The translations under genes were made by a program, and so were the position numbers. Source: an uncultured Flavobacteriales bacterium (GTDB lineage Bacteria > Bacteroidota > Bacteroidia > AKYH767-A > 2013-40CM-41-45). Taken from it: 64,000 nt of DNA. Location of the stretch: NCBI GenBank assembly GCA_964595205.1, contig CAZQOQ010000036.1, positions 242,553 to 306,552 on the forward strand. The letters run 5' to 3'. Shown here piece after piece: positions 1,728 through 23,291 of this stretch. Within the stretch, counting starts at the first letter, position 1. Every line of letters starts with the position of its first letter. The notes beneath the pieces were generated by a model. It did not search any database and was not told the DNA's origin. It was given only the letters and a program-made list of their open reading frames with translations.

Positions 1728-2687
1728 TTAAAAATACCTGATAGACTTAATCCGGGTTTTATAGATGCCTATGTCGTAACTGATTGTAAATTCATGCGAT
1801 CCGTAACTGTATTTTTGCAAATGTGATATTGTGTAATCGTATGAATACCCGAACCTGAATTCCCTGCTGATTTGAAAACCGATCAGGCACGACACCGCAT
1901 CACCCGTGCGGTAAGCAGTGCCCAGCCAGAGTAAGTCGTTCAGGACGAAATTTAAACTTGCATCAAGTTGTACCGGTGCATTCTGAACACATTTAATCAT
2001 TACCGACGGCTTGAATTTCACATTCTCGTCCAGATCCATCACATAACCTGTCGCAAAATAGTAGCTCCATACTTTCGGGTTGCCAATATTTTTTACAACG
2101 CTGTTTGGTTTTGATGGATCGATCTTGTTTTCCAGCAGTCTTGGAATCGAAAACCCTGCGTAAAAATTCTTCTTATAGTAGTAAGTGCCGAAACCTGCAT
2201 TAGGAAGAAAATATTTCCTGACGTCGCTGCTAAACTGCCGGTCACCCGGAGTCGTTGTATTTACATCCGTAAAATTCTCGACATCGTTTACAATTCCACC
2301 CTGCAAACCGAAGGCAAGTACGGAAGACGGCATCAGTATTCTGTATGCAAAATTCCCGCAGATCAGAAATTTGTTTGATACGCCAATCGATTCATTCATC
2401 ATCGAAAGACCAATTCCAAGTTTCCTGTTTTCTACCGGAAGATGTATGCTGAATGCCTGGGTTTTCGGACTGCCTTTTATTCCTGCCCACTGATTTCTGT
2501 AAACCATATTCATCGCAAGACCTTCATGCGATCCCACATAAGCAGGATTGATAAATGTCTCGTTGAACATATACTGGGTGAACATGGGCTCCTGCTGTGC
2601 TTTCACACACATAGAAGTAAGAATTAACAGCGCGATCGCACAGTGGCATTTCAACTTCCCGGTAATATGTGTTATAAATGAATTCAT
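1728..2687 (-). CDS. porP: Type IX secretion system membrane protein PorP/SprF family
   Basis: The 319-aa protein has a signal peptide and the hallmark PorP/SprF N-terminus QQEPMFTQYMFNETFINPAYVG. It lies immediately downstream of the T9SS type-B cargo gene. Confidence 0.9.
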   Translation of the reverse strand: MNSFITHITGKLKCHCAIALLILTSMCVKAQQEPMFTQYMFNETFINPAYVGSHEGLAMNMVYRNQWAGIKGSPKTQAFSIHLPVENRKLGIGLSMMNESIGVSNKFLICGNFAYRILMPSSVLAFGLQGGIVNDVENFTDVNTTTPGDRQFSSDVRKYFLPNAGFGTYYYKKNFYAGFSIPRLLENKIDPSKPNSVVKNIGNPKVWSYYFATGYVMDLDENVKFKPSVMIKCVQNAPVQLDASLNFVLNDLLWLGTAYRTGDAVSCLIGFQISREFRFGYSYDYTISHLQKYSYGSHEFTISYDIGIYKTRIKSIRYF

Positions 2688-2710: not shown

Positions 2711-5700
2711 TTAATACCTGATAATGAGGTATCCTGTTTTATTTATTTCTGTAACTCCCAGCTTCAGAATGTAGAAGTATGTTCCTGGTGGCACCTTGCC
2801 CTCGCCCAATGTAATTCCATTACTGCTGGCAATGGCATCCCACGAATTGTCGTAGTCGCTCGTCGAATAGATCACATTTCCCCATCGGTTAAACACCTCA
2901 AGTGACGTACCCGGATATTTTTCAAGTCCATCGATTACAAATAAATCATTCACGCCATCACCATCAGGAGAAAATCCATCCGGAATGATCAGCGAATCGC
3001 AATCAACCACGATTAGTATTGTGCCTGAAGCTGAACACATATATGAGTTGGTCACCGTTACAAAATACTGAGTGGTTCCATCCGGAACTGCAATTGGATT
3101 TGGAATGTTGATGGAATCCAATCCGGTTGAAGGCGACCATATGTAGTCTGTCCCACCCGTTGCTGTTAGTTGTGTTCCCTTTTCACAGTCGTATGTCGAT
3201 GAAGAAATTGTTACTACCGGAAGTGGATTCACCGTAACCGTTACTGTCGTGTCTTTTGCGCATCCGAGACTTGTTCCTGTAATCGTATACGTTGTAGAAG
3301 AAGCAGGCGATGCAATCGGGTTTCCAATACCGGAATCGCTCAAACCTGTCGACGGGCTCCATTGAAAATTGTCTGCACCGGTAACATCCAGTTGTGATGA
3401 ACTTCCTTCACACATCGTCAACCCGCCGTTGATTGTCAATGCAGGTATCGGATTAACAAGTATGTTGAGTGTGTTTGAGACAAAGTTTCCGCAGCTATGG
3501 GTAAGCGTCAGGTAATAATCTCCTGTCTGTCCTGTTACGTATGAACTGTCTGATGCACCGGAAATCGGGACGCCATTCTCGTACCACTGGAAAACTCCTC
3601 CTGAAGACGTCGTGCTCATCGTCGTGCTGATACCTTCACAGAATGTTGATGACGCCGAGGAAATAATTAATACAGCAGAAACATCATTGATTGTGATTGG
3701 GGAAGATTTAACGCAGCCATTGGTGTCGGAAACAGTGACTGTGTAGGTTCCTGCGATCTCGCTTAAGTCCTCTCCTGATTGTCCGTTGCTCCACGAATAT
3801 ACATATCCCGGAGTTCCGCCGTTTACTGTAATGTCAATCAGCCCATTCGAATTCTCCAGGCAATTTGCAGGAGTAACAATCGAGTAGAAGGTGAGTGGAG
3901 TAGCAGGCTGACTAACGACAGCAGAGACCGTCTCCGTACATCCGTTGCCATCAGTGATTAATACGGAATATGTATTTGCAAAAACCTGGAGAAGATCCTC
4001 ATTTGTATCACCGTTATTCCATTGGAAAATGTAAGGCGGTGTTCCTCCGGCTACACTAAGGTCTGCCTCCCCGCTGTTGTCACCAAAACATTTTACATGG
4101 GTCGCGGATGCTGATGCTGAAAGTCCGGCCGCCGGCTGCTGCACAGTTGCCGAATCGGTTTTACTGCATCCAAGTGAATCGGTAATTGTTACTGTATAAT
4201 TTCCTGCCGGAACACCTGATATGTTTTGTGTGGTCGCACCTGTATTCCATGAATAAAGGAATGGAGTAATTCCGACCGGAGCAGTTGTTACTGATCCCGT
4301 ACTGTCTCCATTACATAGAATATCATTGACAGTAATGCCTGTGCTGATAATGCCGGTTACCGTAAAGAAAACCTTTCCGGAAGAACAAAGCTGAGGAATT
4401 CCGTTATCGCAGGCTGTGTAATCAAGCGAGTCGTTTCCGATAAATCCTGCGTCCGGAATGTAAATAATATTAATGCCATCCGATATGGCTAGTCCGTTTA
4501 CCGGCTGCGTGATTGATGAGATGGACAAAGTATCCTGGTCGATGTCTGTGTCATTTAACAAGGGACTCGCCTGGACGCCTAAACCGGAACATACGCTTGC
4601 TGAATCATTCATAGTGGCAGGCGGATCGTTTACCGGATTCACGGTAATGAAAAGAGTGTCGTTTATGCAGAATGCAGGTAACGGCCGGCCGCTGTCGCAC
4701 ACGCTCAAAACTACAGTATCCTCTCCGTAGAAATCAGCCGAAGGCGTATATGTATATGTACCCGGACTTCCAGCTATAAATAATCCATGCGATGGTCCGG
4801 ATACAGGTGTTGTATTCACGGATAGCGCCGTGGTGTCAATGTCATAATCGGCACCGGTAAGGATGTTGCCGCTGAATGGAGTGTCTTCATCCGTTACTCC
4901 GATATCATTTGCAACAACAACGGTATCATTTACCGGGTGCACGGTAAAATAAAGCGTGTCATGCACGCAAATGGAAGGAAGCGGGCTGCCGTCGTCACAT
5001 ATATCTATGATTACGACATCGTCTCCATTGTAATTTAAAGAAGGAGTATACTGATAGGTTCCGTCTGTGTTTATAATGATCGATCCGTGAGCGGGACCTG
5101 AAACAGGAACTGTATCGGCCGTTAATTGTACCCCGTCAATATCGGTATCCAACCCGCTGATAACCGATCCGATTACGTAACTGTCTTCATCCACTTCTGC
5201 AGTATCGTTTGTTATAACAGGCGCATCATTGATTGGATTCACTGTAATAATCAATGTGTCGTTTACGCAGATCGATGGCAGAGGAATACCGTTGTCACAA
5301 ATACTGATAACGATTGTATCGACACCATTGAAATCAGTCGATGGAGTATAGGTATAAGAACCGGTGGTGTCGATGATAAATATTCCGTTGGCAGGACCAC
5401 TTAAAGGAATCGTATCAACAATAAGCGGTGTGCCGTCAGGGTCCGTATCGCCTCCGGTAATGATAGTGCCCGCAACTGATACATCTTCATTTGTTGTATT
5501 GTTGTCGTTTACGATCACAGGGGCGTCATTCGATGCTGTGACATTAAATATCAATGTGTCGTTCACGCATATCCCCGGAAGCGGATTCCCTGAATCGCAG
5601 ACGCTGATGATTATCGTATCAGTTCCGTTAAAATCGGGATCGGGAGTGTATGTGTAATTCCCTGCTGTATCGATATCGAAAGTGCCATTGGCCGGACCCG

Positions 5701-8700
5701 CTATCGGAACGGTGTCGATGGTGAGAGTGGTGGAGTCGGGATCGAAATCTCCCGCAGTGATTATGGTGCCGTTGAATGTGTTTTCCTCTGTGAGTGTCGT
5801 AGTGTCATTTTCGATCACAGGAGGATCGTTGACAGCAATGACTGTAATTATTAATGTATCGTTGAGACATGTTGCAGGCATTGGAGTGCCGCCGTCACAA
5901 ACGTTGAATATAATAGTGTCTGTCCCGTTAAAATTGAGATCCGGAGTATAGGTATAATTTCCAGCTGCATCGACAACAATTCCTCCATGTGCAGGACCAG
6001 CCACAGGTGTTGTATTTACTACCAGTCCCGTCGTGTCAATATCATAATCGCCGGCTGTAATGATCAGGCCGTTCACGGGCGTATCCTCCGGTGTTGTATT
6101 GGCGTCGTTTACAAGTATGACCTGGTCGTTTACCGGATTCACAATAATATAAACCGTATCGGCAGTACACAACGACGAGCTGTCGCAAACATTTACGATG
6201 AAGAAATCGGTCCCGTTGAAATTGCTGTCGGGTAAATATGTAAAGCTTCCATCCGCCATTACCGAAAGCGCCCCGTATGCAGCATTTGTTACAGGTACGG
6301 TATCCACAGTGAGCACGGTGCCGTTTGGATCGAAATCTCCGTTCGAAATTATTCCACCTGCCGGAGGCACATTAAGAAACAGGTCTTCATTTACGGAGAG
6401 TGTATCGGTGATCGTAACAGGTGCGCTGTCGGGTACAATGATGTTTAATGTAGCATAAGAACACATTACGGGGTTGCCGGTATCACACACTTCGTAGTAT
6501 ACATATTCGATTCCTGTAAAACCGTTATATGCAGTGTAGGTGTAACTTCCGTCTGGATTGAAGATGATATCTCCATTGATAGGTCCTGTTATTAATGTAA
6601 ATCCTGCCGGATCGAGATTGCCATTCGGGTCATTATCGTTCGTGCCGACATTGCCCGAATATGGGGTTACGCCATAAGTTATTATGGTATCTGCAACAGC
6701 ATTCGGAGGTACGTTTGAGGTTGTTACCGATATCGTAACTAAGGCCGTATCGCACATGGAAGGAGTAGCATCATCGCAAACCAGGTAAGTGAAAAATTCG
6801 TCCCCGATAAAGACGCCGTCGGGTGTATAGGTGAAAGTTCCGTCAGCATTTACAATTACGCTGCCCATTGCCGGCGGTGTGATGAGACTGTATGTCATCC
6901 CCTGGCCGTCAGGTTCTACATCATCATTTGCGGCTACGGAATTGCTGATTGCAAATGTATTTGTCGTGGAAAAAAAATCATCGTTTGCAGCCGGAGGCCG
7001 GTTGTTAATGGAGACATACACTTTTGCAATGGAACATGTACTTATAATGTTTATACAGCCGGCGCCGAAATGATGGATATCACAGACTTTATATTCAAAG
7101 CTGTCAAGGCCCATGACACCCGGATCTGGCGTATACTGAATTTGCCCGTTGTCGAGGTATTCTATGGTTCCCAATGCCGGTGCAAGTAAACCTGAAGCTG
7201 TTGAATCGACTTCGAGTGAATCTGCATTTGGGTCAGTATCGTTATTGAGAACAAAGATTGGTAATATTTCGTTTATGAAAGTTGAGTCAGTATCGGCAAC
7301 TGCATTCGGCGGATCGCTTGGAGGGTTGTTGCTGTTTACCGTTACACTCACATTCCCATTTGTGCATTGTTGTGAATTTCCATTATCACAGACCTGGTAA
7401 GAAAATGTTGCAATGCCGGTAAATACCGGTGAGTCGGATGGAGTATAGACAATCTGGTTGTTTGAGATAACCGCACTTCCATTGGAGGGCACTGAGACCG
7501 ATGTAACGGTAAGTGTTCCATTCTCCGGATCGGTATCATTGGAAACAACATCTATGATTACTGCATTGCAGGCGCTGGTTGTTATCGTATCGTCGTTTGC
7601 CGTGGGAGCCTGGTTAGTGACGGTTATATAAAGGATAGCTGTATCGCATGCTGCCGGTGAATCGTTATCACAGATCTCATAGGCGACGGAATCTATTCCC
7701 GTAAAATCTGCATTCGGTGTGTATTGAATGGAGTTGCCGGCCAATACCGCTGATCCGTTTGAAGCAGACAAAATGGACTCCATTAGGGAAGTGGTATATG
7801 TAAATGCATTGACGGAAAGTGTATCGTTACTCTGAACATTTACCAATATGGGTGTTGCACTCGGTGTGGTGCTGTTATCTGTCATTGCCACGGGAGGCCC
7901 TGGCGCTGTCGTTACAATGAACAAGGCCGTGTCGCAGAGCGATGGCGTTCCCGTGTCGCATAACTTATACATCACGGTATCGACACCCGTAAATCCGAAA
8001 TCCGGAGTATAGGTAATGTTGTTTCCGTTTACGTTCGCCGAACCATTCGATGCCGGTGGATTTATGATGCTTACTGAAAAAGAATTTCCATCCGGATCTG
8101 CATCATTGGAAGTCACGCCATAATCAACAGCCCGGTTTGCATACGTTGTAGTCGTATCGTTATTGGCAACAGGAGGCCGGTTTGGAATATTCGTGCACTT
8201 CCAGAAATCAAAACTTACTGCATCTGCATCCACACCGCCAGTCGTTGTTGTCTGCCTGATCCTGATGAAGCGAGTCTGTCCCGATACGATGAAATTATAA
8301 TTTGCAAATATTTTGTCAGACGCTGCCGGAAGATTAAAAACAGTTGTCGTCGTTGGACTCCCCCATGCGTTGGTAAGATTTCCTTCTACGGTGATTGTAT
8401 TCGCAGAAGCATTATCGGGAGCCATCCGTATCACTATTGTGTCTGATGATGGAACGGTATCGGTCAGATCGAGGACAACATTTGATCCAATCACATTTAC
8501 GATTATTGCCGAAAGGGCATTGCTGCCATTTGATGCATCCGGAATGCCAAGAGCATCATTCGGATTTGTTGCATTCAGGCTCGACATAACAGCCGTTGCA
8601 TGCCCGCTGGTAAATGTTCCCACCTGGTTAGAGGCACAGGGATTATCCAGAATTGTATATGTGACAAAAGCTGTATCGCACAGGCAATTTGTATTACACA

Positions 8701-11098
8701 CCCTGTATATAACCTGATCGGTACCTGTATACCCCGAGTCGGGAGTATACACAATATTTCCTGCTCCGTTAATGCCTGCAGTACCATTGGCAGGATTCGA
8801 AACGATATCGATGCTCAATGGAAGGCTCTGCGGATCCGTATCATTTGATCTTATGTTGCTGGTGATGGCAGTATTCTTTCCGGTTGATATTGCGTCGTCG
8901 ATGGCGATTGGAACTGCTGAGGTGCAATACCTGTGAATTGCGCGCATCGCATCAAGATTTATCTTGTTCGAACATCCACCTGGCCGGATTACAATTTTTA
9001 CGTATTGTGTAGGTGACGAAACGATTAAATTATAATAATTAAAAATGTCAGCTGTTCCTCCAGGAATTGTAAAATCAGAACTGTTCACACCCGGAATAAA
9101 TCCTCCGGCTGTGAGTGAACCGGAAGCGGTGAGGTCTATACACGTAGCGTTATCATCGGCCATGCGAATCCGGATTGTATCACCAGCGCCTATGGCCGAG
9201 CTTAGACGTACGATGATCGAATCGTTGTCGTTGTTAAATTGTGCGGTATTGGCATTTGATCCATTGGATGCATCAAAATCCCCAATTGCCTCATCGGGAG
9301 TCGTGATGCTGTTTTGATATTGAATGCTATCGATGTATACAGTATCGATACGGTAATATTCGCTCAACGTACAAATGCCATTATCGGGTGTCGTAATTAC
9401 AATTGTTGCCTGTGAACATAACGGCGTGTTGTCGCATACCTGGTAACGCATGGTGTCGATTCCCTGGAATAACCAGCCAGGCGTATAAGTAACACTTCCA
9501 TTTCCGTTATTTGTGAACGTCCCGTGATTGCCGCCTCCGATGAAGGAAATGGAATTGACCATGTTGCCGTTCGGATCCGAGTCGTTGGATAATACATTTA
9601 TGGTTCTGCTGGATGTATTACAAAGATTCGTGTACCGGATCGTGTCATTCACAGCTACCGGAGCCGAAGAAGGAGGGAAGATGGAAACGCTTACAGGGTT
9701 AATTGTACTTCTGCCGCATGCATCTGTAATTTTACAGTAGATGAAAGCAGGAGTTTGCGAGACCACTACAGGAGGAGTGTAATTTGTTGTAGCCGAATTA
9801 ACGGCTGAAAATGTTCCCCCGATCGTGGAATACCATTTATAGGTAAACGATGAAAGCCCTACCGGAGAAGAGGGTGTTGCTGTAAGATTATTATAAAGCA
9901 CTCCGCTGTTCATCAGTGATGGAACGTTTGCATAAGAAACACCGGGCGATTTATCGGGCGCAACTATCAAAGCATAATTGAAAAATTCCCTTTGTGCCGA
10001 AACCTCCTCGGCGTTGTTGCCTCCGATATCATGGCCTCCCTGGTACATGACATAACCCCGGGCAGGGTTGTCAAAACCCCGACCATATAATGTCGCTGCT
10101 GCAGGCCCGTTCGATTTACCCGGTATGTCATGATGCGTAGGATCGTAACAAGAGATTTTCACTCCCGGATACCAGTCGCTTCCCGGTTTTGAGGGAAGAA
10201 ATAATTCATCATGGCCTTTATGTGCATCATCCTCCGGCCCAATCATCTGAAATACCGGATCGGAAACGTTCATGTAGCTGTATGGTGGAGTGCCTTTCTT
10301 TGCAGATTTGAGTAAGCCGCCGGTACTCAGGAACCTGAGACTTTGAGAGGGATTCGAATGATTGAAACCCTTATCTCCTTCCATATTACCCGCAGTCTTC
10401 CCTCCGGCCCAGATACTCCCTCTTGAATTCAGGTTCCAGAAAAACAGATTCTGATGCGAATTCCATTTGGCATCTGAATGCGGCGACATAAATAAATCAT
10501 CGCAGCTGTTAAGCATGGCCGGAGTACGATAGTAATAAGCAGTAGAAGGAATATCTGCTTCGTCGAGAATTTTTTTACTCCGATTTGCGTCATGCGGATC
10601 GATAGCCCACTTTGGAGCTGATCCCAGCGTCAGCGTTACATCTAAACTTATCGGGTATATGGTCGTTACTCCAATAACTCCTTTAGCCTGCCAGGATGCG
10701 ATGAGAGCATTCACGGCTGCTGTCCGGAATTCAGCATGTATGATGAATGTACCTCCCCTGTAATTCTGGCCATTGTAAGTGAAATCAATCCCGTCTTTTA
10801 TCTTCGATGGATTGATTACCCATTTGACAGGTACATCATAATTCTTGATTAATTCATAAATTAAACCATAAGGCTTGAGTCCGTTGGAAGGCGTCTGCGG
10901 AGCAATACCCATATTGATAATGAATGACCCGGTGCCGAAAGTCTCATTTGCTGCAAAGCCTGTATGCCTGGTTAGTACCAGCACGATTAAACAAACTATA
11001 ACTCTTTTCGCTAAACTGAAATTAGAAAATAGCGGAAAGGAGAGACGTCGTTGTTTTAATTGAACAAATAAAGAAGCAACCGTGCTATTAATATTCAT
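2711..11098 (-). CDS. Giant T9SS (type-B CTD) cell-surface adhesin, SprB-like: unassigned N-terminal ~450-aa domain, >20 Ig/cadherin-like ~100-aa repeats, 3 SprB repeats, gliding-motility-associated C-terminal domain
   Basis: This is a single 2,795-aa ORF. The C-terminal ~100 aa ([45 protein letters not shown]...GTYFYIL) match the gliding-motility C-terminal (type-B T9SS sorting) domain. SprB repeats of the form [15 protein letters not shown]...YSWNTG...[14 protein letters not shown] occur three times. Tandem VNDAPV...TDPDG...YTYTP...NGxDT units (tandem-95 / VCBS-like) are present. Confidence 0.9.
   Translation of the reverse strand: [2795 protein letters not shown]
4600..6450. repeat. Intragenic tandem DNA repeats, about 300-bp period and 6 or more copies (encoding ~100-aa Ig-like units of the adhesin)
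   Basis: Near-identical blocks recur about every 300 nt (for example around 4640, 4930, 5230, 5530, 5830 and 6130: '...cgtttac(c/g)g...attcac(g/t)gtaat...'). The antisense ORFs 5364-5657 and 5682-5951 have parallel translations, which shows the periodicity. Confidence 0.65.
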
Positions 11099-11439
11099 TA
11101 TTCTTACCCTCGCCGATTTAAATAATTGCTTATCCTGAACCGGACATTGATAGAATCTATATACTATATATAAATGAAAACGATACCTTCCCGAATTGCA
11201 ATTTGCCCGGGGAACTTACACTTTATTATTACCGGAATTTCAGGAGTCGTTTTGACTTAATGACAGTAAAAACGACATTTTTAGCCGTAACAGGCATTCC
11301 CCACATTGGGAAATTCCTTGAAATTATTCTCAATGTTGCGCATGGTTGTGCATCGTATTTTGTTTTATTCCTTACGATTTTTTTTGTAAGTTTCTCTATC
11401 GCCAAATGATTATGTAAATTGGCTTTCAAACAAGTAAAA
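11099..11439. promoter_or_regulatory. Divergent intergenic/promoter region between the adhesin operon (-) and the metalloprotease gene (+)
   Basis: A 340-bp AT-rich non-coding gap between two divergently oriented start codons. No promoter motifs were individually verified. Confidence 0.4.
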
Positions 11440-13893
11440 ATGTCCAGATTTCTATCATTTTTGATTTTTATTTTCACCTGTATAATTGCTTCCGGGCAAC
11501 AAAAAAACATACCTGATTTATCTGAATTACAAGAAGCAGATATCAGGACATTCAGAATCAAATCAACATTTAATGATCCTGCAAACGCAGGCATGCATGT
11601 CGAATACCCTCTCCAGGATTATTATCACAAGCCATTTCTTTCTGCTCCTGCTTTCACAAACTCTTTAATCGCTGACGTAACGCCTCCATCGGATCCCTCA
11701 AACTTTGTTGTCCATACATCAGGCACCTTCAGCGTATATGTAGAATTCGACCCGTCAGCTGATCCGGAATCGGGAATCAGCTATTACGCATTTGCCATCG
11801 GCACAGCTCCGGGGCTGACAAATATCAGGTATTGGCAGAGTCTTGGTACCAGCACGACCACCCAGTCATTCAGCCTCAGTAGCCTGGGAATCACGGAAGG
11901 TTCAGTATTTTATTTTTCATTCTATGCGGTGAACGGAGCAAATCTATTAAGCAATACAGTGAGTACTCCGCCAATTACCATGAACTGGGAGGATTACGGG
12001 GACGCATCAAATAATCTTACAATCATATACTCTGGTCAGGGTTACGATACTGACGGCACAACGCCAATCGCCGGCTGGACCCCGTCACAGATAAATACCT
12101 TCGATCATTTTATTTCAAGGATGCTGCCCATTATTAAGGATATTTACGGACCGCCGTCAAAACCTAATACCATTACACTCGTGAGAAATCTTTATTACAG
12201 TGGTTCTAATATATATTTTCCAAACTCAAACCAGATTCATAAGGATGATTCATTCTATCCGCAACTGCTCACTCACGAACTCATTCATGCCTTTCGTGAT
12301 GATGTGATTCTCGCAATGGATGCCAGCTGGAATTACCATCCAAAACTCAGCGGGTTTGAAGAATCGTTTGCTCAGGGGGCAAGTTATGCCTGCATGAACA
12401 GATATGTACAACTTTATCCGAACGATCCGATCGTAAATTCAACCTCACTCTTCGGTTCTTCCATGGACTGGGACTATGACTTCAGAAATGTATCAAACAT
12501 CACTACTGAAGATTTCTGGAGCGACTATGGCGGCATGCTCATCTATTGGGAGCGGTATGAATTAGGTGCAGCTGCCATGAGAAAGATGCAGCTCGAGGAT
12601 ACGATGATGTACAGGAAATTCAATATTGCTTATTACAATTATCTGAACAGTCATCACCAGGCAACTCCGACACGAAGTCTTTGTGTGGATCTGCTTTCTT
12701 CCATTCTTCCTGTTGTAGAAGGAATACCGACGACTGACTGGATTAATAAGCAGCGGATTTTTGATTGCACCATTCAACCCGGGTATAAAGGATGGGTAAG
12801 GACGCAGCATTATCCATGGTCAGAATATATAATCTTCCAGCGGCTGCATTATTATGAAACTTTTTCCAATGGAAGTGATTGGGCCCATTATAACAACAAT
12901 ACAAGTTCCTGGATATTTTATAATCTGAACGGCAGTACCGGAGCGGGAACTGTTTATGATTACAACAATTCAATTGTTTCACAGAGGAATTTAATCATTT
13001 CAAATAATCCCGGCGGATTTGGAGATCAGGTTTTGAATTTCAGCACCGATAATGATGTGTTGCCATGGCCCGGAGGAAATGCCTCAGATTATCTGCTTAG
13101 TATGAATCTGCTTGGTCTCTACAAGCTTCAATTCACTTTCGGCAGCACGTCAACAATTGCATATCGTGTGATGGGAAATCAATTAAGAAATACGACCGGG
13201 GTTTTTGGCGGCATACTACACGCAAACGGCGGGCATCTCTTTATAGATCATGATGGATTTCCGCTCGAACCACAACTCAATCTGACAAACGGAGCATTCT
13301 GGGGAAGCCGTTCCTGGGCCTCTCTGCCGAACATACTAACAGGCGGCAAAGATTCCAGGCCCGGTAAACTTACATTTCGGTATTTTGATGCATCCGGAAA
13401 TGCATTTCGTACGAAGCGGAATATCGATTACGGAAGTTCTTCGGGAAATCAGCTTTTCCTGCTTGATGTAAACGAAATGATCCCCTGTGACAATGGCGAA
13501 ATTTTTTCAAACGAAACCGATGATGATTGTGACGGACTCGTTGATGAGCCTTCTCCGGTTACCCTCAATTTAAAATTGTTTATCGAAGGCCTTTATCTTT
13601 CAGGCGGTATGATGACTCCCGCCTTGTTCAATTCCGGCGTCAGCATTGATCAGACAAAGTGTGATTCGATAGTTATTGAGCTGCATGGATCGGAAGTGCC
13701 ACATTCGCTTTTATTCAGTACAAAAGGAATTATTGATATTAATGGAAATGGAAGTTTTGTGTTTCCACAGGCAACTAACAACAATTCTTATTATATCGTG
13801 ATTCGACATCGCAATTCAATAGAAACCTGGAGTGCGATGGATGTTTTGTTTGACAAGGCTGAAATCAATTATAATTTTTCGGGATTTAATTGA
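11440..13893 (+). CDS. Secreted zinc metalloprotease-like protein (HExxH) with N-terminal FN3-like region and cysteine-containing C-terminal domain
   Basis: The ATG at 11440 gives MSRFLSFLIFIFTCIIASGQQ, a signal peptide (the ORF-track start at 11419 is a TTG). The zinc motif is LLTHELIHAFRDD. The C-terminal DCDGLVDE...CDSIVIELHG domain has no assigned family. The protein is 817-824 aa. Confidence 0.55.
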   Translation: MSRFLSFLIFIFTCIIASGQQKNIPDLSELQEADIRTFRIKSTFNDPANAGMHVEYPLQDYYHKPFLSAPAFTNSLIADVTPPSDPSNFVVHTSGTFSVYVEFDPSADPESGISYYAFAIGTAPGLTNIRYWQSLGTSTTTQSFSLSSLGITEGSVFYFSFYAVNGANLLSNTVSTPPITMNWEDYGDASNNLTIIYSGQGYDTDGTTPIAGWTPSQINTFDHFISRMLPIIKDIYGPPSKPNTITLVRNLYYSGSNIYFPNSNQIHKDDSFYPQLLTHELIHAFRDDVILAMDASWNYHPKLSGFEESFAQGASYACMNRYVQLYPNDPIVNSTSLFGSSMDWDYDFRNVSNITTEDFWSDYGGMLIYWERYELGAAAMRKMQLEDTMMYRKFNIAYYNYLNSHHQATPTRSLCVDLLSSILPVVEGIPTTDWINKQRIFDCTIQPGYKGWVRTQHYPWSEYIIFQRLHYYETFSNGSDWAHYNNNTSSWIFYNLNGSTGAGTVYDYNNSIVSQRNLIISNNPGGFGDQVLNFSTDNDVLPWPGGNASDYLLSMNLLGLYKLQFTFGSTSTIAYRVMGNQLRNTTGVFGGILHANGGHLFIDHDGFPLEPQLNLTNGAFWGSRSWASLPNILTGGKDSRPGKLTFRYFDASGNAFRTKRNIDYGSSSGNQLFLLDVNEMIPCDNGEIFSNETDDDCDGLVDEPSPVTLNLKLFIEGLYLSGGMMTPALFNSGVSIDQTKCDSIVIELHGSEVPHSLLFSTKGIIDINGNGSFVFPQATNNNSYYIVIRHRNSIETWSAMDVLFDKAEINYNFSGFN

Positions 13894-15910: not shown

Positions 15911-16345
15911 TCATTTTGCCTTAAGGGAACGGATGTATGTAATGACAGTCCATCTTTCGTTGTCGCTTAACTTTTCTTTGTAAGACGGCATCGGTTTTCT
16001 TCCTTCAGTGGTTTTCCAGTAAGCTTCACCATCTGTTACTTTTGCAAATTCATCACCCGTAAAATCTCCGCATGAGATATCGATCTTCTCAGCCTTTGTT
16101 CCATCGCCCTTGCCTTTTACTCCATGGCAGGATTTGCAGTGTTGAGAATAGAGTTCCTTGCCTTCTTTCAATGCTGCTTCATCTGCCTTGATCGGGTTTT
16201 TGGCTTTAATGGCAGACTCAGGGGCCGGCCATGGTTTTCCTTTTGGTTTATCCTGCGCCTGGATATTATTAAGTCCAATGAACAGAAAAGCACCGAGAGC
16301 AACAATTGCAAATAGATTATTTGCATTCATTAATTTTGATTCCAT
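15911..16345 (-). CDS. Monoheme c-type cytochrome (class I)
   Basis: Signal peptide and a single CKSCHG (CxxCH) motif, with a conserved Met-rich C-terminus (PMPSY). 144 aa. A NosC-like position as the last gene of the operon. Confidence 0.8.
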   Translation of the reverse strand: MESKLMNANNLFAIVALGAFLFIGLNNIQAQDKPKGKPWPAPESAIKAKNPIKADEAALKEGKELYSQHCKSCHGVKGKGDGTKAEKIDISCGDFTGDEFAKVTDGEAYWKTTEGRKPMPSYKEKLSDNERWTVITYIRSLKAK

Positions 16346-16351
16346 GATTTC

Positions 16352-16918
16352 TTACTTTTTAGAATTATTTATTTTAATTAAATGCTTGCTTATTTTTTTA
16401 ATTTTAAATATTTGTGTTATCACATAGATTAATGTTCCCCAAATTCCAAGGATAATCAGGTTAGAGACTACAATGAAATAAATCGGAGCATTTTCTCTCG
16501 ATGCATATAATGAGCGACCCATTTCTTCTGCCTTAACCTTTGGAATTCCCCAGTTGATGTTTTCTTTTGTTTCCAGGGTGCCGTAATTCTCATCGTCTTC
16601 AATTTTAGCGATTACAGTAAGGTTCCCCTTTTCATCGCCTGGAATATCTTCAGGGAAATTAATTTTGGCGATTCCATTTTCATCAGTAGTTGCATCGTCG
16701 CCAACGGGCAACTGGCTGAAAAGTCGCTGGACATAAATTTTAACGGCCACTTCGCTTACCGGCTTTTCTTCTGAGATAACCTGTACTTTGCAAACTTTCG
16801 TACTGTCCTCCATTTCGAAACTCAAAGTCATTTTTGCCTCCTTTTCCTGCGCAAACGAAAAAAGCGAAACAAAGATAAACCCCGTAATCAGCTGGAATAT
16901 ATAATGAACGTTTTTCAT
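16352..16918 (-). CDS. Hypothetical bitopic protein (signal peptide plus C-terminal TM anchor)
   Basis: 188 aa with an N-terminal signal and a C-terminal hydrophobic helix IYFIVVSNLIILGIWGTLIYVI. It is tightly packed between the NrfD-like gene and the cytochrome c gene. Confidence 0.4.
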   Translation of the reverse strand: MKNVHYIFQLITGFIFVSLFSFAQEKEAKMTLSFEMEDSTKVCKVQVISEEKPVSEVAVKIYVQRLFSQLPVGDDATTDENGIAKINFPEDIPGDEKGNLTVIAKIEDDENYGTLETKENINWGIPKVKAEEMGRSLYASRENAPIYFIVVSNLIILGIWGTLIYVITQIFKIKKISKHLIKINNSKK

Positions 16919-16926
16919 CTAATTAT

Positions 16927-18300
16927 CTATTTATAATTTATGATTTCATCTTTCCCTTCCAGTCTTCCTTCCGCGACTTCCCAGACTGAAATGATCGGGA
17001 AGAATTTTGAAAACAATGTCACTATCAATAATAATGCAGCAAATGTTGCCCCTACAATCGTCATCTCAACCAGGCTTGGCGTATAGTGCTTCCAGGATTC
17101 GGGAACATCCTGTATCGGAAGATACGGATGTGCAAGCCCTGGTATAACAATCAGGTACCGTTTAAACCATGCGGCAATTACAACAAATACTGCTATGATT
17201 GTAAGCGGTAACGGCTTACGAACCCTCTTAAAGAGCGGTAATGTTGCCGGTAAAATCATTCCGAAAAATACAACAGACCAGTATAATGGAGCATCTTCGC
17301 CAATGAAAAGGCTCAGTAAATGATTTGCATGCAGGCCCGACATTTTATAAGCCGGTACAAGATATTCGTTAACGTTAAAATAAATGTAAACGAATGACAT
17401 CAACGCAAGTGCCTTGCCGAGTTTGTCGAAGTGCATCTCCGTGAGATAATTCTGGAGGCTGTATGCTTTTCTGATTACAAAGACGGCTATAATCATTCCC
17501 GCTACACCAAGAAGGAAAGCTCCTGAAACGAAATAGGCTCCGAAGTTGGTGCTATCCCATTCCGAACGCAACGTCGTTGCAAACAGCCAGGCTGTAACCG
17601 TGTGTATCGAAATACCAAGTGGTATGACCATAATGGTTAATATCTTCATGCACTTCTTCAGAATTCTCCACTGCTCTGCTGTTCCCTCCCAGCCGAACGA
17701 CAGGAAGTCGTACATCTTCATTTGCCATTTTGGTTTGTTCTGAAGGTGATTCTTGCAGGTAGACATCGACGGAATTAAAGGAATGTATAATAGAACCAGG
17801 CTCGTCGCCAGATAAGTCATGATTACGATTATGTCCCAGACAATCGGCGATTGAATTCTTCCGTGTATTACAAGATAATGCAGCCTGTCCGGACGACCCA
17901 TGGCGGCAACAATACTTACTCCCGCAAGCATGATTGCCCCCAGTGCAATCACTTCTGCTATCCTCGACAATGGCCTGTACCATTCGAAGTTGGTCAGTTT
18001 AAGGACGGCAGACATTAATACACCTATTAAACTGAGCGCAACGAAGAATACGAAGTTTGAAATATAAACACCCCACATCGTATAATCCCTCAGCGAAACA
18101 GTGACATACTTACTCTTAGTTTCCTGGATATAATATGCATAAAGTCCGAGCAGGCAGACAAGAACTAAAAATGCAATCCATACCTTGCCCCACTTGCCCA
18201 GATGTTGTACAGGACGGAGTAAATCTCTCTTCATCACCATATACTCTTCCTGCGTAAATGTTTCGTAGGTAGTCGCTTCTTTTGGATTAAATGCGCTCAT
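16927..18300 (-). CDS. NrfD/PsrC-family polytopic membrane quinol-interacting subunit (NosH/ActC-like)
   Basis: A 457-aa integral membrane protein with 8-10 TM helices. It lies immediately downstream of a Tat FeS protein (14-nt gap), the classic NrfC-NrfD / PsrB-PsrC / NosG-NosH arrangement. Confidence 0.75.
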   Translation of the reverse strand: MSAFNPKEATTYETFTQEEYMVMKRDLLRPVQHLGKWGKVWIAFLVLVCLLGLYAYYIQETKSKYVTVSLRDYTMWGVYISNFVFFVALSLIGVLMSAVLKLTNFEWYRPLSRIAEVIALGAIMLAGVSIVAAMGRPDRLHYLVIHGRIQSPIVWDIIVIMTYLATSLVLLYIPLIPSMSTCKNHLQNKPKWQMKMYDFLSFGWEGTAEQWRILKKCMKILTIMVIPLGISIHTVTAWLFATTLRSEWDSTNFGAYFVSGAFLLGVAGMIIAVFVIRKAYSLQNYLTEMHFDKLGKALALMSFVYIYFNVNEYLVPAYKMSGLHANHLLSLFIGEDAPLYWSVVFFGMILPATLPLFKRVRKPLPLTIIAVFVVIAAWFKRYLIVIPGLAHPYLPIQDVPESWKHYTPSLVEMTIVGATFAALLLIVTLFSKFFPIISVWEVAEGRLEGKDEIINYK

Positions 18301-18314
18301 AATAATTGATGTTT

Positions 18315-19247
18315 TTATTCCTCCTTGTTGTGTTCTTCAGTGGCATCTTCAAACGGAAATTGTCTCTTCACCGGAGGCAGATAATAAACTCTGGGTTTTG
18401 TTCCAAGCTCTTCAAACTGGCGATAGCCTGCCCGGCTCCTGAGCAATTCTTTCAGGCGGAATGTTTCTTCGCCATTTGTAACTGTGTCCTCATATTCGTC
18501 ACCGAAAAAGATCGTCCCGTTTGGACATTCAGTCACGCATTTAGGTAATTCACCCTTTGCAGCATGACCGGGACAAAAATCACATTTCGAAACAGTGCCA
18601 ACCGTTGAAGACTTCGTCGTACAACAGTGATCATCTGTACAGCCGTTTTTCTCGCTGTAAGCGACTTGCTCAGGCCTGCCAAAATTGAATGTCCGTGCGG
18701 AATACGGACAAGCGGCCATACAAAATTTGCAACCGATACATCGATCGCTGTCTACAGCTACAATGCCGTCTGATCTTTTAAATGTTGCATCAACAGGACA
18801 TACTTTCGTACATGGAGGATTGTCGCAGTGATAACAGGGTTGAGGAAACCAATATGGAGAAGCAAGTTCTGAATCCTGCATCTTTTTTACCTTGATGTAT
18901 TCCACCGGTGGGAGCATGTTGTGCATATGCTGGCAGCCTTCCACACACTTTCTTTCATTGGCACATCGTGCAAGATCGATGACCATAACAAATTTTCTGC
19001 CTTCTATTCCCTGTCGGATCTGTTCCTTCGATAAATCGTATTCTGTTGCATGATGGGTAACATGAGAACTGTCTACTTCCAGAAGTTTGCCATCGGCGGT
19101 CAGCACCTTTACTTTCTTACCCGTCTCCTCTTTTTCGCCACCGATGAGTTTATTTTGAAGAGCTAAACCGGCTAAGGTTGCACCTCCGGCAAGTAATCCG
19201 AATTTGAGAAATTTTCTGCGATCGGAATTTTCATTTTCTTTTTCCAT
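18315..19247 (-). CDS. Tat-exported 4x[4Fe-4S] ferredoxin-type subunit (NrfC/PsrB/NosG-like)
   Basis: Twin-arginine signal SDRRKFLKFGLLAGGATLAGLA. There are four Cys clusters: CANERKCVEGC, CYHCDNPPCTKVCP, CIGCKFCMAACP and CDFCPGH...CVTECP. Confidence 0.85.
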   Translation of the reverse strand: MEKENENSDRRKFLKFGLLAGGATLAGLALQNKLIGGEKEETGKKVKVLTADGKLLEVDSSHVTHHATEYDLSKEQIRQGIEGRKFVMVIDLARCANERKCVEGCQHMHNMLPPVEYIKVKKMQDSELASPYWFPQPCYHCDNPPCTKVCPVDATFKRSDGIVAVDSDRCIGCKFCMAACPYSARTFNFGRPEQVAYSEKNGCTDDHCCTTKSSTVGTVSKCDFCPGHAAKGELPKCVTECPNGTIFFGDEYEDTVTNGEETFRLKELLRSRAGYRQFEELGTKPRVYYLPPVKRQFPFEDATEEHNKEE

Positions 19248-19312
19248 AAAATCTTTTTTCAGCTTTTCTCATATAAAGATATACTTATTCCAGAATGAAT
19301 TTCATTCAACAA

Positions 19313-20212
19313 TTATTTGAATCCCCATTGACGGGTAATATTAAATCCGATCAACATATCACCTTCAAAAAAATCATTCTTATTGAAGACCCTGAAGTCC
19401 TGGTTCATGATTTCCTGTGAAGAACAGACAAATACCTGGAACTGGTGGCTGCCTGTGGAAACCTCATAGCCGATTCCAAAATTTGGTTTAGGCCTGTAGA
19501 TTTCATCCATGTCGGAAACATTCAGCAGGTAATCGTATTCGATCAATACCGAGGACTGTGGGCTGAATTTATATCGTCCTGCGAATGAAATGCCGTAGAA
19601 GTCGTTTTTCCCATAAACGGAATCGATGATGTTGAAGTGTGAGTACGTGCCTGCCACCTGTGCAGAAATCTTACTGGTGAACTTTCTGCCTACTATGATT
19701 TCGTTGAAATAGGAAAACTTGTTTGCTTTTTTAAATTCATTTTCCTGGTTGATGAAATTTTCATCTTCCAAAGAACTCTTTGAAACATCTCCATAATATG
19801 TTACGGAAACCGGAACTCCTTTCCCCTTGGTCTGTTTAAGAATGATTGCCTTGCCCTGTAGGTCGTACTGCATTTTATTTTTTGTAACTCCTGCCCCAAG
19901 TGAAATTCGTTTGGTGATTCCATAACTCATTCCAAGCCTGATATTGGCCGGCGCATAGATTCCAAACAGGTCGTCTGAATTTTTTACCAACCCGAACCGG
20001 TGCTGGATCATAAATTCAAGAGATTTATGCCCGTTATTTTCTATCGTCTGATTGTTTATCAAAACAGGATTTTCAAAAGTTGCTTTTACATATTCTTTTG
20101 CTGCAACCGGAGCGCCTGCTTCTGTGGTTTCCTGTGAATACGATACAGCTGTGATCGCCAGTAAAATCAGAAGTGAAATTCCCTTTAACAAATAATTTTT
20201 ACGGTAATTCAT
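19313..20212 (-). CDS. Outer-membrane beta-barrel protein of unknown function
   Basis: 299 aa with a signal peptide, alternating amphipathic strands and a C-terminal aromatic residue (...QWGFK). It is embedded in the electron-transfer operon. Confidence 0.5.
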   Translation of the reverse strand: MNYRKNYLLKGISLLILLAITAVSYSQETTEAGAPVAAKEYVKATFENPVLINNQTIENNGHKSLEFMIQHRFGLVKNSDDLFGIYAPANIRLGMSYGITKRISLGAGVTKNKMQYDLQGKAIILKQTKGKGVPVSVTYYGDVSKSSLEDENFINQENEFKKANKFSYFNEIIVGRKFTSKISAQVAGTYSHFNIIDSVYGKNDFYGISFAGRYKFSPQSSVLIEYDYLLNVSDMDEIYRPKPNFGIGYEVSTGSHQFQVFVCSSQEIMNQDFRVFNKNDFFEGDMLIGFNITRQWGFK

Positions 20213-20224
20213 ATTTTTTATGTG

Positions 20225-20611
20225 TTAGTTGTTTTGTGCTCCTTGTTCAATCCATGCCAGGATGTATCCGATCTCTTCTGCAGTGAGCGGTGCTGAAGGC
20301 GGCATTGGATTAACGGGCGAAATAATTCTTTTATAAAGTAAACTTTCTTCAGCATTTGATGTGTCCACGTAACCAAGCCCGGTTAATTCATTGTAAGCGT
20401 TTGGAGCGGATAAGTCCGGCGACGGTCCGCCACTTACGTGACAGGTTGGAATTGCACAATCTGCAGTGAAGATTGGTATAATGTCCTCTGAAAAACTTAC
20501 AGGCTCAGTAATTTCAACCGGTGCTGTGGTATAATAATCTTTTTCACACCCGATTAAAAAAAGCAGGCTTAATGATACAATCGTTAGAAGGCCGTATTTT
20601 TTCATTTTCAT
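20225..20611 (-). CDS. Small lipoprotein with a CAIPTCH motif (possible atypical heme site)
   Basis: 128 aa with lipobox LIGC. The mature N-terminus CEKDYYTTAPVEITEP is paralogous to that of the upstream 478-aa cytochrome. The gene overlaps the upstream gene by 4 nt (ATGA). Confidence 0.5.
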   Translation of the reverse strand: MKMKKYGLLTIVSLSLLFLIGCEKDYYTTAPVEITEPVSFSEDIIPIFTADCAIPTCHVSGGPSPDLSAPNAYNELTGLGYVDTSNAEESLLYKRIISPVNPMPPSAPLTAEEIGYILAWIEQGAQNN

Positions 20612-21978
20612 TTGAATGTGAGAGTTTCTTTTGCAGAGCCAATATGATTTTTTCCGTCGTTATCCATCAGCGCAACACCAAATGTGTAGCTCTTGTTTGC
20701 AGCGACATCGAACTGAGCATCGTCAGCATTGTTTGTTTTTAATTTACGAACCAGCAGAACCTGGTAAAGCGTGTGCACGTTTGTGCCGGGGAGCATGGCA
20801 TCTTTTATCTGAAGTGGTGTAAGGTTGCTGGTTGCAGTTATGTCGGCATTGCTGCCGTCAGGAGTCTGAAGGTAATAACCCGGTACGCCCGACAATCCTC
20901 TAAGGAAAGCAACCACATCATCTCTCTCCTGGCTGTTTAAAGTGCCCCAATACGGTCCCATATCAGCTACGAAATCCATGCTCGACATTAATGCTGAGCG
21001 GGATTTTTTATTTTGTGAAATGTGATTGATCGCTCCTTCGGTTCCGCCCTGACCGCGGTTGCCATGACAACCGGCGCAATCACCCGGAGGCGATGTCCTG
21101 TTATAAATGGAATCTCCTCTTTGTGCGTCACCAAGGAATGGCGATTTATTTAAAATGTAAAAAGCAGGATCGAGAATCGATGACTGTCCGTTAGGTAATG
21201 TAACAGATTGAGACGAGCCATCCCATTCATATGCCGGACCGGAACGATCAGTACTGCCTGCAGCATTTCGTTCAAACATTTTTTGTCCGCCATCGTCGAC
21301 CATGCTGTCCGTTTTGGCAATCATGTCTTCTGCATAACCCATAGGAGCCGATTTAGCTATATTCCAGTTCCAGAGATCGATACTTCCGGCAGTCGGATAC
21401 ATGTAGTTTTCTCCTGCAGCAGAGTGGCAGGAAGCTGCACATCCAACATTTGAAAATGTACCTGAGGGACTTGAAGCAGAATTTATCTCAAATGCAAATG
21501 CTAAACGGTCGGTGTTGCGTTGGGATGTCCAGCCACTTACCGCATCTGTCTTTAACGGGTCGACTGGTCCGCCAAACATCCAGCTGGAATTTGAAAGATC
21601 AACGTCTGAGTCGATCCACTCCGCCAGGATATAAATGTTGTCATTGTCATAGGCGGCCTTTAAGATCAACCCGGGATCATCACCGCCATTAAATGATGCA
21701 AGCCCGGTATATGTGCCTGTCATGTTCAGCAAACCATCACCATAAAGATTGTTTGTACTCAGATTTCCGGAACTCACTTTCAGATAATCAGCAGTTTTCC
21801 AGTAAGCCGAAGTGAGTGACACCGGAGGGCTGTTTACAAATTTTGCTTCCAGGGTTGATGTTGGTTCTGAAGTGTCAGGTGGCGGAGGAGTGTAGTAATA
21901 ATCCTTCTCACAGGAAACCATCATTACAATTAGCAGGATGAAGATGCTGACTTTAACAGGATGCTGAACGTATTTCAT
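20608..21978 (-). CDS. c-type cytochrome lipoprotein (about 455 aa mature)
   Basis: The likely start is the ATG at 21976-21978 (MKYVQHPVKVSIFILLIVMMVSC, lipobox). The ORF could extend to 22044. There is a canonical DCAGCH heme motif plus a CAASCH (Cx3CH) motif. The N-terminus is CEKDYYYTPPPPDTSEP. Confidence 0.7.
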   Translation of the reverse strand: MKYVQHPVKVSIFILLIVMMVSCEKDYYYTPPPPDTSEPTSTLEAKFVNSPPVSLTSAYWKTADYLKVSSGNLSTNNLYGDGLLNMTGTYTGLASFNGGDDPGLILKAAYDNDNIYILAEWIDSDVDLSNSSWMFGGPVDPLKTDAVSGWTSQRNTDRLAFAFEINSASSPSGTFSNVGCAASCHSAAGENYMYPTAGSIDLWNWNIAKSAPMGYAEDMIAKTDSMVDDGGQKMFERNAAGSTDRSGPAYEWDGSSQSVTLPNGQSSILDPAFYILNKSPFLGDAQRGDSIYNRTSPPGDCAGCHGNRGQGGTEGAINHISQNKKSRSALMSSMDFVADMGPYWGTLNSQERDDVVAFLRGLSGVPGYYLQTPDGSNADITATSNLTPLQIKDAMLPGTNVHTLYQVLLVRKLKTNNADDAQFDVAANKSYTFGVALMDNDGKNHIGSAKETLTFK

Positions 21979-22112
21979 AATTTTTATTTTAAAAGAAACT
22001 GATGTACCGTCTTCCTGTTTAACTTTCCTCTTGAATCGATACATCAGTTTTTCTTTTACTTAGATAATGAGATTAAAAATTAGATGTGATATTCAGAAAC
22101 ATTAGAATTGAA

Positions 22113-22979
22113 TCAGTGATTTTTATAGAACACAGCATTGATTGTCATTTCCATTTCATCGGAAGTGGAAATTGACCAGACACCATAGGTTTTATTGTTC
22201 GCTGCTGTTACGTTGGTAATAGCTTCAGAAGCCTTAGGCACCGGCCAATATGGAACGGTTGACTGGTTATCCATGTAATCAGACCTGTTGAATTTAAAAG
22301 TAGCTGTTAATCCTGCCCTGAGTTTATCATACGTTCCGTCATTGTTGGTGTCGAAGTCCCTCATCCCGTTGAAAGACAAATGAATATCTACGTTGTTAAC
22401 GATAGGCTCACCATTTGTATGACCGGGAGCATTCAGCCACCTGTTAAATGTTAACGTACCATGCATTGTGTACCCTTCGTGTGAATCGACTGTAATTGAA
22501 TTACAGTGGAATTTAGCTGTATCGCTCAATGGATCCACCTGTGTTTTTAAAGTGTCTAGGTAAACAATTCCTAAATAATTCAAACCACATTTTCCCAAAC
22601 CGTCTCTTCCAGGTTCTCCGGTATTATAGGTGGAAAGCTGCACCCAAAAATCAATTACAGCAGCGGATATGTTTGTTTCATCAAACTGGAATTCCGGATT
22701 GAACAGAAAATTATTAAATCTTCCAGTCAACATAGTAGAAGAAAAATCATAATACTTGGATTGCCAGTTCACATTCGAGTGTGATTTTTCAAATGTCCAG
22801 GTTGTGTCGATTGCTGCAGTTCCCGGTACAAATACTCCTGTATCATTCGGGTCAACATAAACGGTGTCATGAACCGTATTAGTAACTGTTTCCGTATCTT
22901 TTTTACATTGAGTTAAGAATAAACTCAATCCTGCGATGGTTAATATTGCCAGTGCGAGGAAATTTTTTTTGTTTTTCAT
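22113..22979 (-). CDS. Hypothetical lipoprotein (first gene of the operon)
   Basis: 288 aa with signal and lipobox LFLTQC. No recognisable motif. Confidence 0.4.
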   Translation of the reverse strand: MKNKKNFLALAILTIAGLSLFLTQCKKDTETVTNTVHDTVYVDPNDTGVFVPGTAAIDTTWTFEKSHSNVNWQSKYYDFSSTMLTGRFNNFLFNPEFQFDETNISAAVIDFWVQLSTYNTGEPGRDGLGKCGLNYLGIVYLDTLKTQVDPLSDTAKFHCNSITVDSHEGYTMHGTLTFNRWLNAPGHTNGEPIVNNVDIHLSFNGMRDFDTNNDGTYDKLRAGLTATFKFNRSDYMDNQSTVPYWPVPKASEAITNVTAANNKTYGVWSISTSDEMEMTINAVFYKNH

Positions 22980-23291
22980 AATGTTGTTTTTGTATTGACC
23001 TGTTGAAATGATTTATTGCGCTTTGTTTTATTTTTTCTGAGTCCAAATCTCCAACCTTACGAATTTTTATAAAATGATTGGCCTCATATTTAATGCAAGT
23101 TTGATATGATTTGTATCATGTATTCCGGGATACTTCATTATTTCTGGCTCATTCTGATTATTGATATGGATTGCTGCCGAATTGATATCGGAATACCAGG
23201 CAAAATGATTTAGATCCCCTTGTGTTTTCATTATTTTCATCTAAATTCGTCGAATTGCCATTCAATTCATCAAATTCAATTATAGTTTTTC
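22980..23291. promoter_or_regulatory. Divergent promoter region between the NrfCD-like operon (-) and the octaheme cytochrome gene (+)
   Basis: A 312-bp AT-rich non-coding gap flanked by divergent start codons. Confidence 0.4.

Follow-up and report, generated by a model that had tools for sequence, protein, structure and literature searches.

A GATase1-like head family on secreted proteins of Bacteroidota, and a giant SprB-like adhesin whose copy lacks the invariant cysteine

Giant adhesins secreted by the T9SS (type IX secretion system) are abundant in environmental Bacteroidota, and the function of their tips is mostly obscure. The usual partner of type-B T9SS cargo is a protein of the PorP/SprF family, and holding of the C-terminus by such a partner is established for SprB and Fjoh_3952 (PMC12618676). 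Here we analyse the N-terminal head of one giant protein, encoded on a 64,000-nucleotide stretch (the window) of contig CAZQOQ010000036.1 from an uncultured Flavobacteriales bacterium. An original prediction for this locus had recognised a SprB-like T9SS giant, and the locus bears this out, with a CHU_C C-terminal domain (CTD), SprB repeats and a PorP/SprF-family protein encoded directly downstream; the type-B CTD and the adjacent downstream porP/sprF gene are both marks of SprB-like type-B T9SS adhesins. The prediction had also placed a globular domain of ~450 aa at the N-terminus, ahead of the first Ig-like repeat. A globular module does follow the signal peptide and is conserved as a unit, but it consists of two domains and not one; the boundary was placed correctly, since the first Big_9/cadherin-like repeat (Pfam) begins at aa 478. 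The giant open reading frame (ORF) and the two domains of its head are:

2711..11098 (-), giant ORF of 2795 aa, comprising a signal peptide, the two-domain head, a stalk of repeats and a CTD of the type-B T9SS kind (ORF and domain searches)
9950..10951 (-), class I glutamine-amidotransferase-like (ThuA-like) alpha/beta domain, aa ~50-383 (AlphaFold2 model, structural matches)
9701..9949 (-), Ig-like beta-sandwich, aa 384-466 (AlphaFold2 model; Foldseek matches to Ig domains at ranks 41-42)

Fold of the head and the family to which it belongs

The head was predicted to be unassignable to any known family, and at the sequence level it is: residues 1-466 have no Pfam, NCBIfam or PDB-sequence match, even at E-values of ≤1 or 10, and PDB phmmer and profile searches were blank. 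For the domain of the window and for 30 homologues there is no Pfam match at E≤1 to any family, PF00117 and PF06283 included, and the Ig-like sandwich also has no Pfam match. Alignment of the family profile with an approximate Thermotoga maritima HisH sequence using hhalign gave no signal. No true class I glutamine amidotransferase (GATase1) gene from which to make a comparison profile was found when the window and 81 loci were searched locally. No confident match of aa 40-466 to an adhesin repeat or a carbohydrate-binding module was seen in Pfam or NCBIfam; the structural matches are GATase1-like, and only the last ~83 residues are Ig-like.

A model of the head (ORF residues 40-466) was built with AlphaFold2 from a 121-sequence alignment, and has a mean pLDDT (predicted local distance difference test) of 94.4 and a pTM (predicted template modelling score) of 0.92. 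Residues are numbered below as in the model unless ORF numbers are given; adding 39 gives the ORF residue. The model divides into an alpha/beta domain (model ~11-343; ORF ~50-383) and a beta-sandwich (model 347-427; ORF ~384-466), and the first of these contains a flavodoxin-like alpha/beta core of the GATase1 type. Structural matches include Pdx2 (scoring 13.8), the glutaminase domains of HisH, GuaA, PabA and PurQ (10-12), a gamma-glutamyl hydrolase or peptidase (10.6-11.5), GIFT domains (those of IFT52 and of OST48), and the middle domain of GH42. Foldseek agrees with a GATase1-like fold, and matches the C-terminal sandwich to Ig domains. The predicted fold is thus a known one, GATase1/ThuA-like followed by Ig-like, that is out of reach of sequence methods, and a novel fold is not supported. 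The sandwich belongs to the conserved module, as seen in W383, G389 and D420-x-C422-G-R424.

A search with residues 40-466 identified 255 clusters of homologues, a conservation well above chance, with E-values that reach 1e-120 and an identity of 40-63% across ~97% of the query; none of the clusters has a Pfam annotation across the head region. A profile search of 1.84 billion cluster representatives (50% identity) yielded 763 at E≤1e-30; this search used full-length rows, CTD and Ig matches swell its counts at E≤1e-3 and 1e-10, and the E≤1e-30 count alone is used. At least 477 relatives are in species-representative genomes, nearly all of them labelled Bacteroidota; the labels include Chitinophagaceae, Saprospiraceae/Lewinellaceae, Runella, Dyadobacter, Sphingobacteriales and Aquirufa, and one locus is in a Methylophilus-labelled bin. 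An exact look-up of the giant protein among public assemblies gave no hit, and its best match in the species representatives has 62% identity. The family is absent from Pfam-A (2025 copy) and NCBIfam 20, no paper describing it was found, and the literature yielded no description of a GATase-like T9SS cargo or of a GATase1-like N-terminal head on SprB-like proteins.

In 232 of 244 proteins the head module begins no later than aa 120, immediately behind the signal peptide. Lengths of the family proteins range from ~440 to 4735 aa, with a common form of ~640 aa; in the common form the module is followed by ~190 aa (an extra sandwich and a CTD of type A or type B), and at the other extreme by over 3,300 aa of Ig/cadherin-like repeats. 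The head is not peculiar to this adhesin; the family is widespread, and is found on short stand-alone T9SS proteins too. The presence of one head on proteins of such different lengths suggests a functional unit displayed at variable distance from the cell. Full-length homology across both domains, position after the signal peptide and the CTD place the copy in the window within this family, and its four closest genomic relatives (57-62% identity) are also giant ORFs. We conclude that the two-domain module constitutes a large, unannotated, GATase1-like family of Bacteroidota T9SS cargo, specialised as an N-terminal head.

Neighbouring genes were clustered at 80 homologous loci. Those that recur are other T9SS cargo, PorP/SprF genes behind type-B giants, and syntenic genes of particular lineages (ribosomal protein S1, a histidine kinase); beyond PorP/SprF and T9SS cargo no gene is consistently adjacent at these loci, and no functional clue emerges.

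Several variants of the architecture are seen. In ~5% of the proteins the module is internal (L035, in a stop-to-stop frame of 5030 aa, at aa ~2901; P0224, P0221, P0259, P0190 and P0251), either as true internal copies or through merged gene calls. In some genomes two head-family genes lie near each other on a single contig, as tandem paralogues (L020, 5517-6734 and 9090-10415; L042, 3-1202 and 3008-4303). A small group (P0101, P0005 and L017) is fused to SdrD-B-like/CarboxypepD_reg domains and has several changes at near-invariant positions (C-L/R-T-G-S, PHADA, H176Y) with the Cys kept; it forms a second, milder divergent lineage.

The conserved site of the family

Conservation was scored over 324 distinct full-length homologous domains, or 325 with the copy in the window. 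Three residues, His168, Cys194 and His317, are present in all 324; Glu258, Arg331 and Cys160 are each present in 323, Ser198 in 320, Glu201 in 314 and His195 in 279, and His176 and His227 are further conserved histidines. Cys194 lies in the sequence xIWAG-CHAVSx-LE, flanked by small residues (A/S/V, then G/A, before the Cys; H, then A/S/G, after it), and DSSP applied to the model shows it to be the sole residue between strand 189-193 and helix 195-201. A strand-Cys-helix arrangement with small flanks is the classic nucleophile elbow of GATase1 and other alpha/beta hydrolytic folds. His168 comes after the neighbouring strand 163-166, a position that corresponds to the oxyanion-hole loop of GATases, and His317 is three residues past the last core strand and ahead of the terminal helix, like the GATase catalytic His.

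The simplest reading of this arrangement is that the invariant residues would form one functional pocket, that Cys194 would be equivalent to the GATase nucleophile (by topology, and not by superposition), and that the site would be a Cys/His active site of the hydrolase or acyl-transfer type. His195 covaries with Ser257, in the pairs HS, KA, NA, RA, IW and others (Fisher p ~1e-31, uncorrected for phylogeny), which ties the 257-258 (G-S-E) loop to the elbow. Positions 195 and 257 also shift together as a subfamily signature, K/A in Runella (for example L011, L021, L022 and L065) and N/A with D170A/S in others (L036, L041 and L061). These subfamilies keep Cys194, His168 and His317, which suggests alternative versions of one pocket.

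Several points weigh against a catalytic Cys/His site. The third residue of the GATase triad is not conserved, the position two residues after His317 being I, H or L and not Glu, although Glu258 or Glu201 could stand in for it. Secondary-structure topology and covariation are the grounds both for grouping the residues in space and for equating Cys194 with the GATase nucleophile, and Pfam, PDB profile and hhalign comparisons linked the head to no GATase1 family by sequence. The invariant Cys and His residues may bind a metal, the Cys being no nucleophile; finally, Cys160 is also near-invariant, and a Cys160-Cys194 disulfide is formally possible.

The last of these points would fit a family of non-enzymatic, GIFT/ThuA-like modules that bind carbohydrates or surfaces and in which the Cys is structural (for example in a disulfide with Cys160), the copy in the window being a divergent functional binder. 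We think this improbable. Cys160 is three residues ahead of strand 163-166 and Cys194 is found where the parallel strand beside it reaches its C-terminal end, so that the topology would place them at opposite edges of the sheet; the copy in the window retains Cys160 while having lost Cys194; and for His168, Cys194 and His317 to be completely invariant among 324 sequences of ~40% identity fits a reactive site better than a binding surface.

Loss of the site in the copy of the window

The residues at which the site is altered or retained in the giant ORF are:

10478..10480 (-), His207 (model His168), kept; PHSDA here, PHADP in the family (His in 324/324 homologues)
10379..10417 (-), degenerate nucleophile elbow, aa 228-240, with Cys194 replaced by Gly233, His195 by Lys234 and Ser198 by Gly237 (model residue, then ORF residue; homologue alignment, DSSP)
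10208..10213 (-), His296-Asp297 in place of the family's Ser257-Glu258, within the motif HKGHDE (alignment; Glu in 323/324)
10031..10033 (-), His356 (model His317), kept; the His of the motif GGHD, three residues past the last core strand (324/324, DSSP)

This copy has Gly194, Lys195, Gly198, Arg216, Ala227, His257, Asp258 and Ala171, so that Cys194, His195, Ser198, His227 (now Ala), Ser257 and Glu258 of the site are all replaced, and His168, His317, Arg331 and Cys160 are kept. The combination is unique among the 325 domains, and this is the only copy without Cys194 (sets of 120, 80 and 150 homologues were examined); it is a family member that lacks the family's invariant site. Seven of 47 near-invariant columns are changed, the highest number in the set (the median of the others is 0). 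The nearest relatives (P0001, 63% identity; L067, 62%; L002, 59%) keep WAGCHAVS, the His227 position and NGSE. An apparent H317N in P0001 is an artefact, as P0001 ends at query residue 293.

The replacement of CHAVSV by GKTAGN is in frame, with identical residues on both sides. A compensated frameshift was considered as its cause and rejected: the other frames do not contain CHAVS, and the flanks are in register.

With Cys194 lost, the head in the window cannot perform any Cys-dependent function of the family. We hold, with moderate confidence, that it is a GATase1-like member of a Cys/His-site family that has lost its site, and that it probably serves as a binding or structural, non-catalytic tip (a pseudoenzyme). 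The pocket would have been dismantled and the scaffold kept, the ancestral chemistry most likely being lost. It counts against this reading that no relative above 63% identity is available in which selection on the Cys-less state might be seen.

The number of changes at near-invariant positions, the highest of any homologue, would also suit a head that is simply in decay, left without function or new role on an adhesin that is still expressed or was inactivated recently; the somewhat longer branch and the lack of close relatives with the same state point the same way. The branch excess is modest, however, with distances to outgroups only ~15-25% above those of its sisters, which indicates that the fold is still conserved. 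Forty of the 47 near-invariant positions are kept, among them the Gly, Pro and Trp that determine the fold; the ORF is unbroken over 8.4 kb and retains its signal peptide and CTD, and a PorP/SprF gene lies downstream of it; and the changes are concentrated on the putative site residues and not scattered through the domain. We therefore consider decay very doubtful.

Metal binding had been raised by the original prediction, which described His/Asp-rich segments and proposed a search of homologues for a conserved metal-binding His/Asp pattern. All three quoted peptides are present, a 20-residue segment at aa 293-312 (nt 10163-10222), PTHHDIPG at aa 320-327 (nt 10118-10141) and an 18-residue segment at aa 348-365 (nt 10004-10057). 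The His/Asp enrichment is only mild (11 His residues, or 2.6%, against 1.75 ± 0.4% in homologues), and the conserved pattern fails: across the three segments only His356 (GGH) is invariant. The GGHD segment holds the family-invariant G309, V311, Y313, G316 and His317; the KGHDE segment is the family loop x-N-G-S-E-Q-x-Y-L-P...W with Ser-Glu exchanged for His-Asp; and the PTHHDIPG segment is variable in the family, only the preceding Asp280 being conserved there.

The main alternative to a nucleophile site is close to this idea, namely that His168, Cys194 and His317 (with Glu258) bind a metal, structurally or catalytically, and that the copy in the window has lost the site or rebuilt it with His296 and Asp297. 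There are three invariant residues of metal-ligand type together with the conserved His195, His176 and His227, the window's copy has gained a His at 257 and an Asp at 258 and is slightly richer in His than its homologues, and some members of the GATase1-like superfamily, such as Hsp31, bind metals. Against it are the classic nucleophile geometry of a strand-Cys-helix elbow with small flanks, the absence from this copy of one of the three core ligands and of two accessory histidines, and the lack of a match to any metal-site motif in the Pfam and NCBIfam libraries. We regard a metal site as unlikely, and continue to prefer a Cys/His site in the family and a non-catalytic tip in the window.

Display of the head and comparison with known systems

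The remaining parts of the giant ORF and the adjacent gene are:

10952..11098 (-), N-terminal leader/Sec signal peptide region, aa 1-49, with a hydrophobic core of 10 residues (sequence, homologue alignment)
2990..9700 (-), stalk of ~15 Big_9/cadherin-like 'tandem-95' repeats, two unassigned modules of ~150 aa, 3 SprB repeats and further Ig-like segments (Pfam, NCBIfam)
2720..2989 (-), CHU_C/type-B T9SS sorting domain, aa 2704-2793 (Pfam, NCBIfam)
1728..2687 (-), PorP/SprF-family gene directly downstream of the giant ORF (PF11751, E 2.7e-81)

The signal peptide is probably cleaved after GFA, directly ahead of ANETF, which is where the mature domain starts in homologues. The CTD matches CHU_C with an E-value of 1.9e-25 and TIGR04131 with 1.9e-10. 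The downstream PorP/SprF-family product is presumed to be the cognate shuttle or anchor for this type-B cargo, and a PorP/SprF gene likewise follows the giant genes of three relatives (L002, L077 and L040). By analogy with other type-B cargo, the protein would be exported by Sec, passed through the T9SS by means of its type-B CTD, and held at the surface C-terminally by the PorP/SprF-like protein; such anchoring would leave the N-terminal head at the outer tip of a stalk of Ig/cadherin-like repeats that is ~2,200 residues long. Most heads of the family would carry a pocket around the nucleophile-elbow Cys and two invariant His, of hydrolase or acyl-enzyme type, and the head in the window would now act at its distal position by ligand binding or structurally. 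It is possible that it sets the ligand specificity of the adhesin.

A more speculative extension, which we put forward as a long shot, is that the family is an undescribed class of T9SS-displayed Cys-nucleophile heads at filament tips, acting either as stalk-mounted enzymes or as a 'covalent harpoon' that attaches to gamma-glutamyl or amide groups of a target surface as an acyl-thioester; the protein in the window would then be a natural pseudoenzyme switched to non-covalent binding. The thioester domains of Gram-positive adhesins offer an analogue for the harpoon.

Two modules of the stalk, at 8894-9376 (-) and 8144-8611 (-), are ~130-155 aa each (aa ~575-735 and ~830-985) and interrupt the Big_9 array. 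Neither has a Pfam match; their mutual identity is 36% (E 2e-18), and DASNGSNA and IRMA(D/P)DNA are among the motifs that they have in common. Divergent from the giant gene is an 824-aa ORF (11419-13893, +) with a HELIH (HExxH-like) motif and no Pfam match, which was not found beside the giant genes of relatives. Further away, at 15911-25538, is a redox/respiratory-type gene cluster unrelated to the adhesin, coding for a small cytochrome c, an NrfD-like membrane subunit, a 4Fe-4S protein, a DUF5777 beta-barrel, an EB_dh/cytochrome c protein, a YceI-like protein, and a multihaem cytochrome of 748 aa with fused TPR repeats.

A GATase1-like family that lacks annotation and has an invariant Cys/His site thus makes up a very common tip module, and hundreds of 'hypothetical' T9SS cargo proteins gain a concrete hypothesis, whether of a hydrolase, an acyl-enzyme or a metal site. 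The family is useful for annotation, and the copy in the window is to be treated as a degenerate member, to which any activity later found for the family should not be transferred. As a natural variant without the putative active site, it offers a control by which catalytic and binding roles might be separated.

Each of the structurally related groups differs from the head family. The resemblance to ThuA-like proteins (PF06283; PDB 4jqs, 1t0b and 4e5v) is one of structure only, at 7-9% sequence identity and with no Pfam match; insertions account for ~130 of the ~335 aa of the head domain, a family-specific Ig-like domain comes after it, and to our knowledge the invariant Cys/His set is not a ThuA signature. 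To the class I glutamine amidotransferases (PF00117; HisH, Pdx2, the GuaA/PabA glutaminase and the peptidase C26 gamma-glutamyl hydrolase) there is no detectable sequence relationship; these are cytoplasmic, whereas the head family is secreted by the T9SS without a synthase partner and lacks a Glu two residues after the His, and the copy in the window lacks the Cys as well (Gly, aa 233). The GIFT domains (GldG/IFT52/OST48-WBP1; PF09822) show no sequence match and are not heads of T9SS cargo, and we know of none with an invariant nucleophile-elbow Cys. With the SprB-type type-B giants, the protein in the window shares the CHU_C CTD, SprB repeats, a long Ig/cadherin-like stalk and porP/sprF immediately downstream (PMC12618676); it differs from them in that its stalk is made up mostly of Big_9/tandem-95 repeats and not of SprB repeats.

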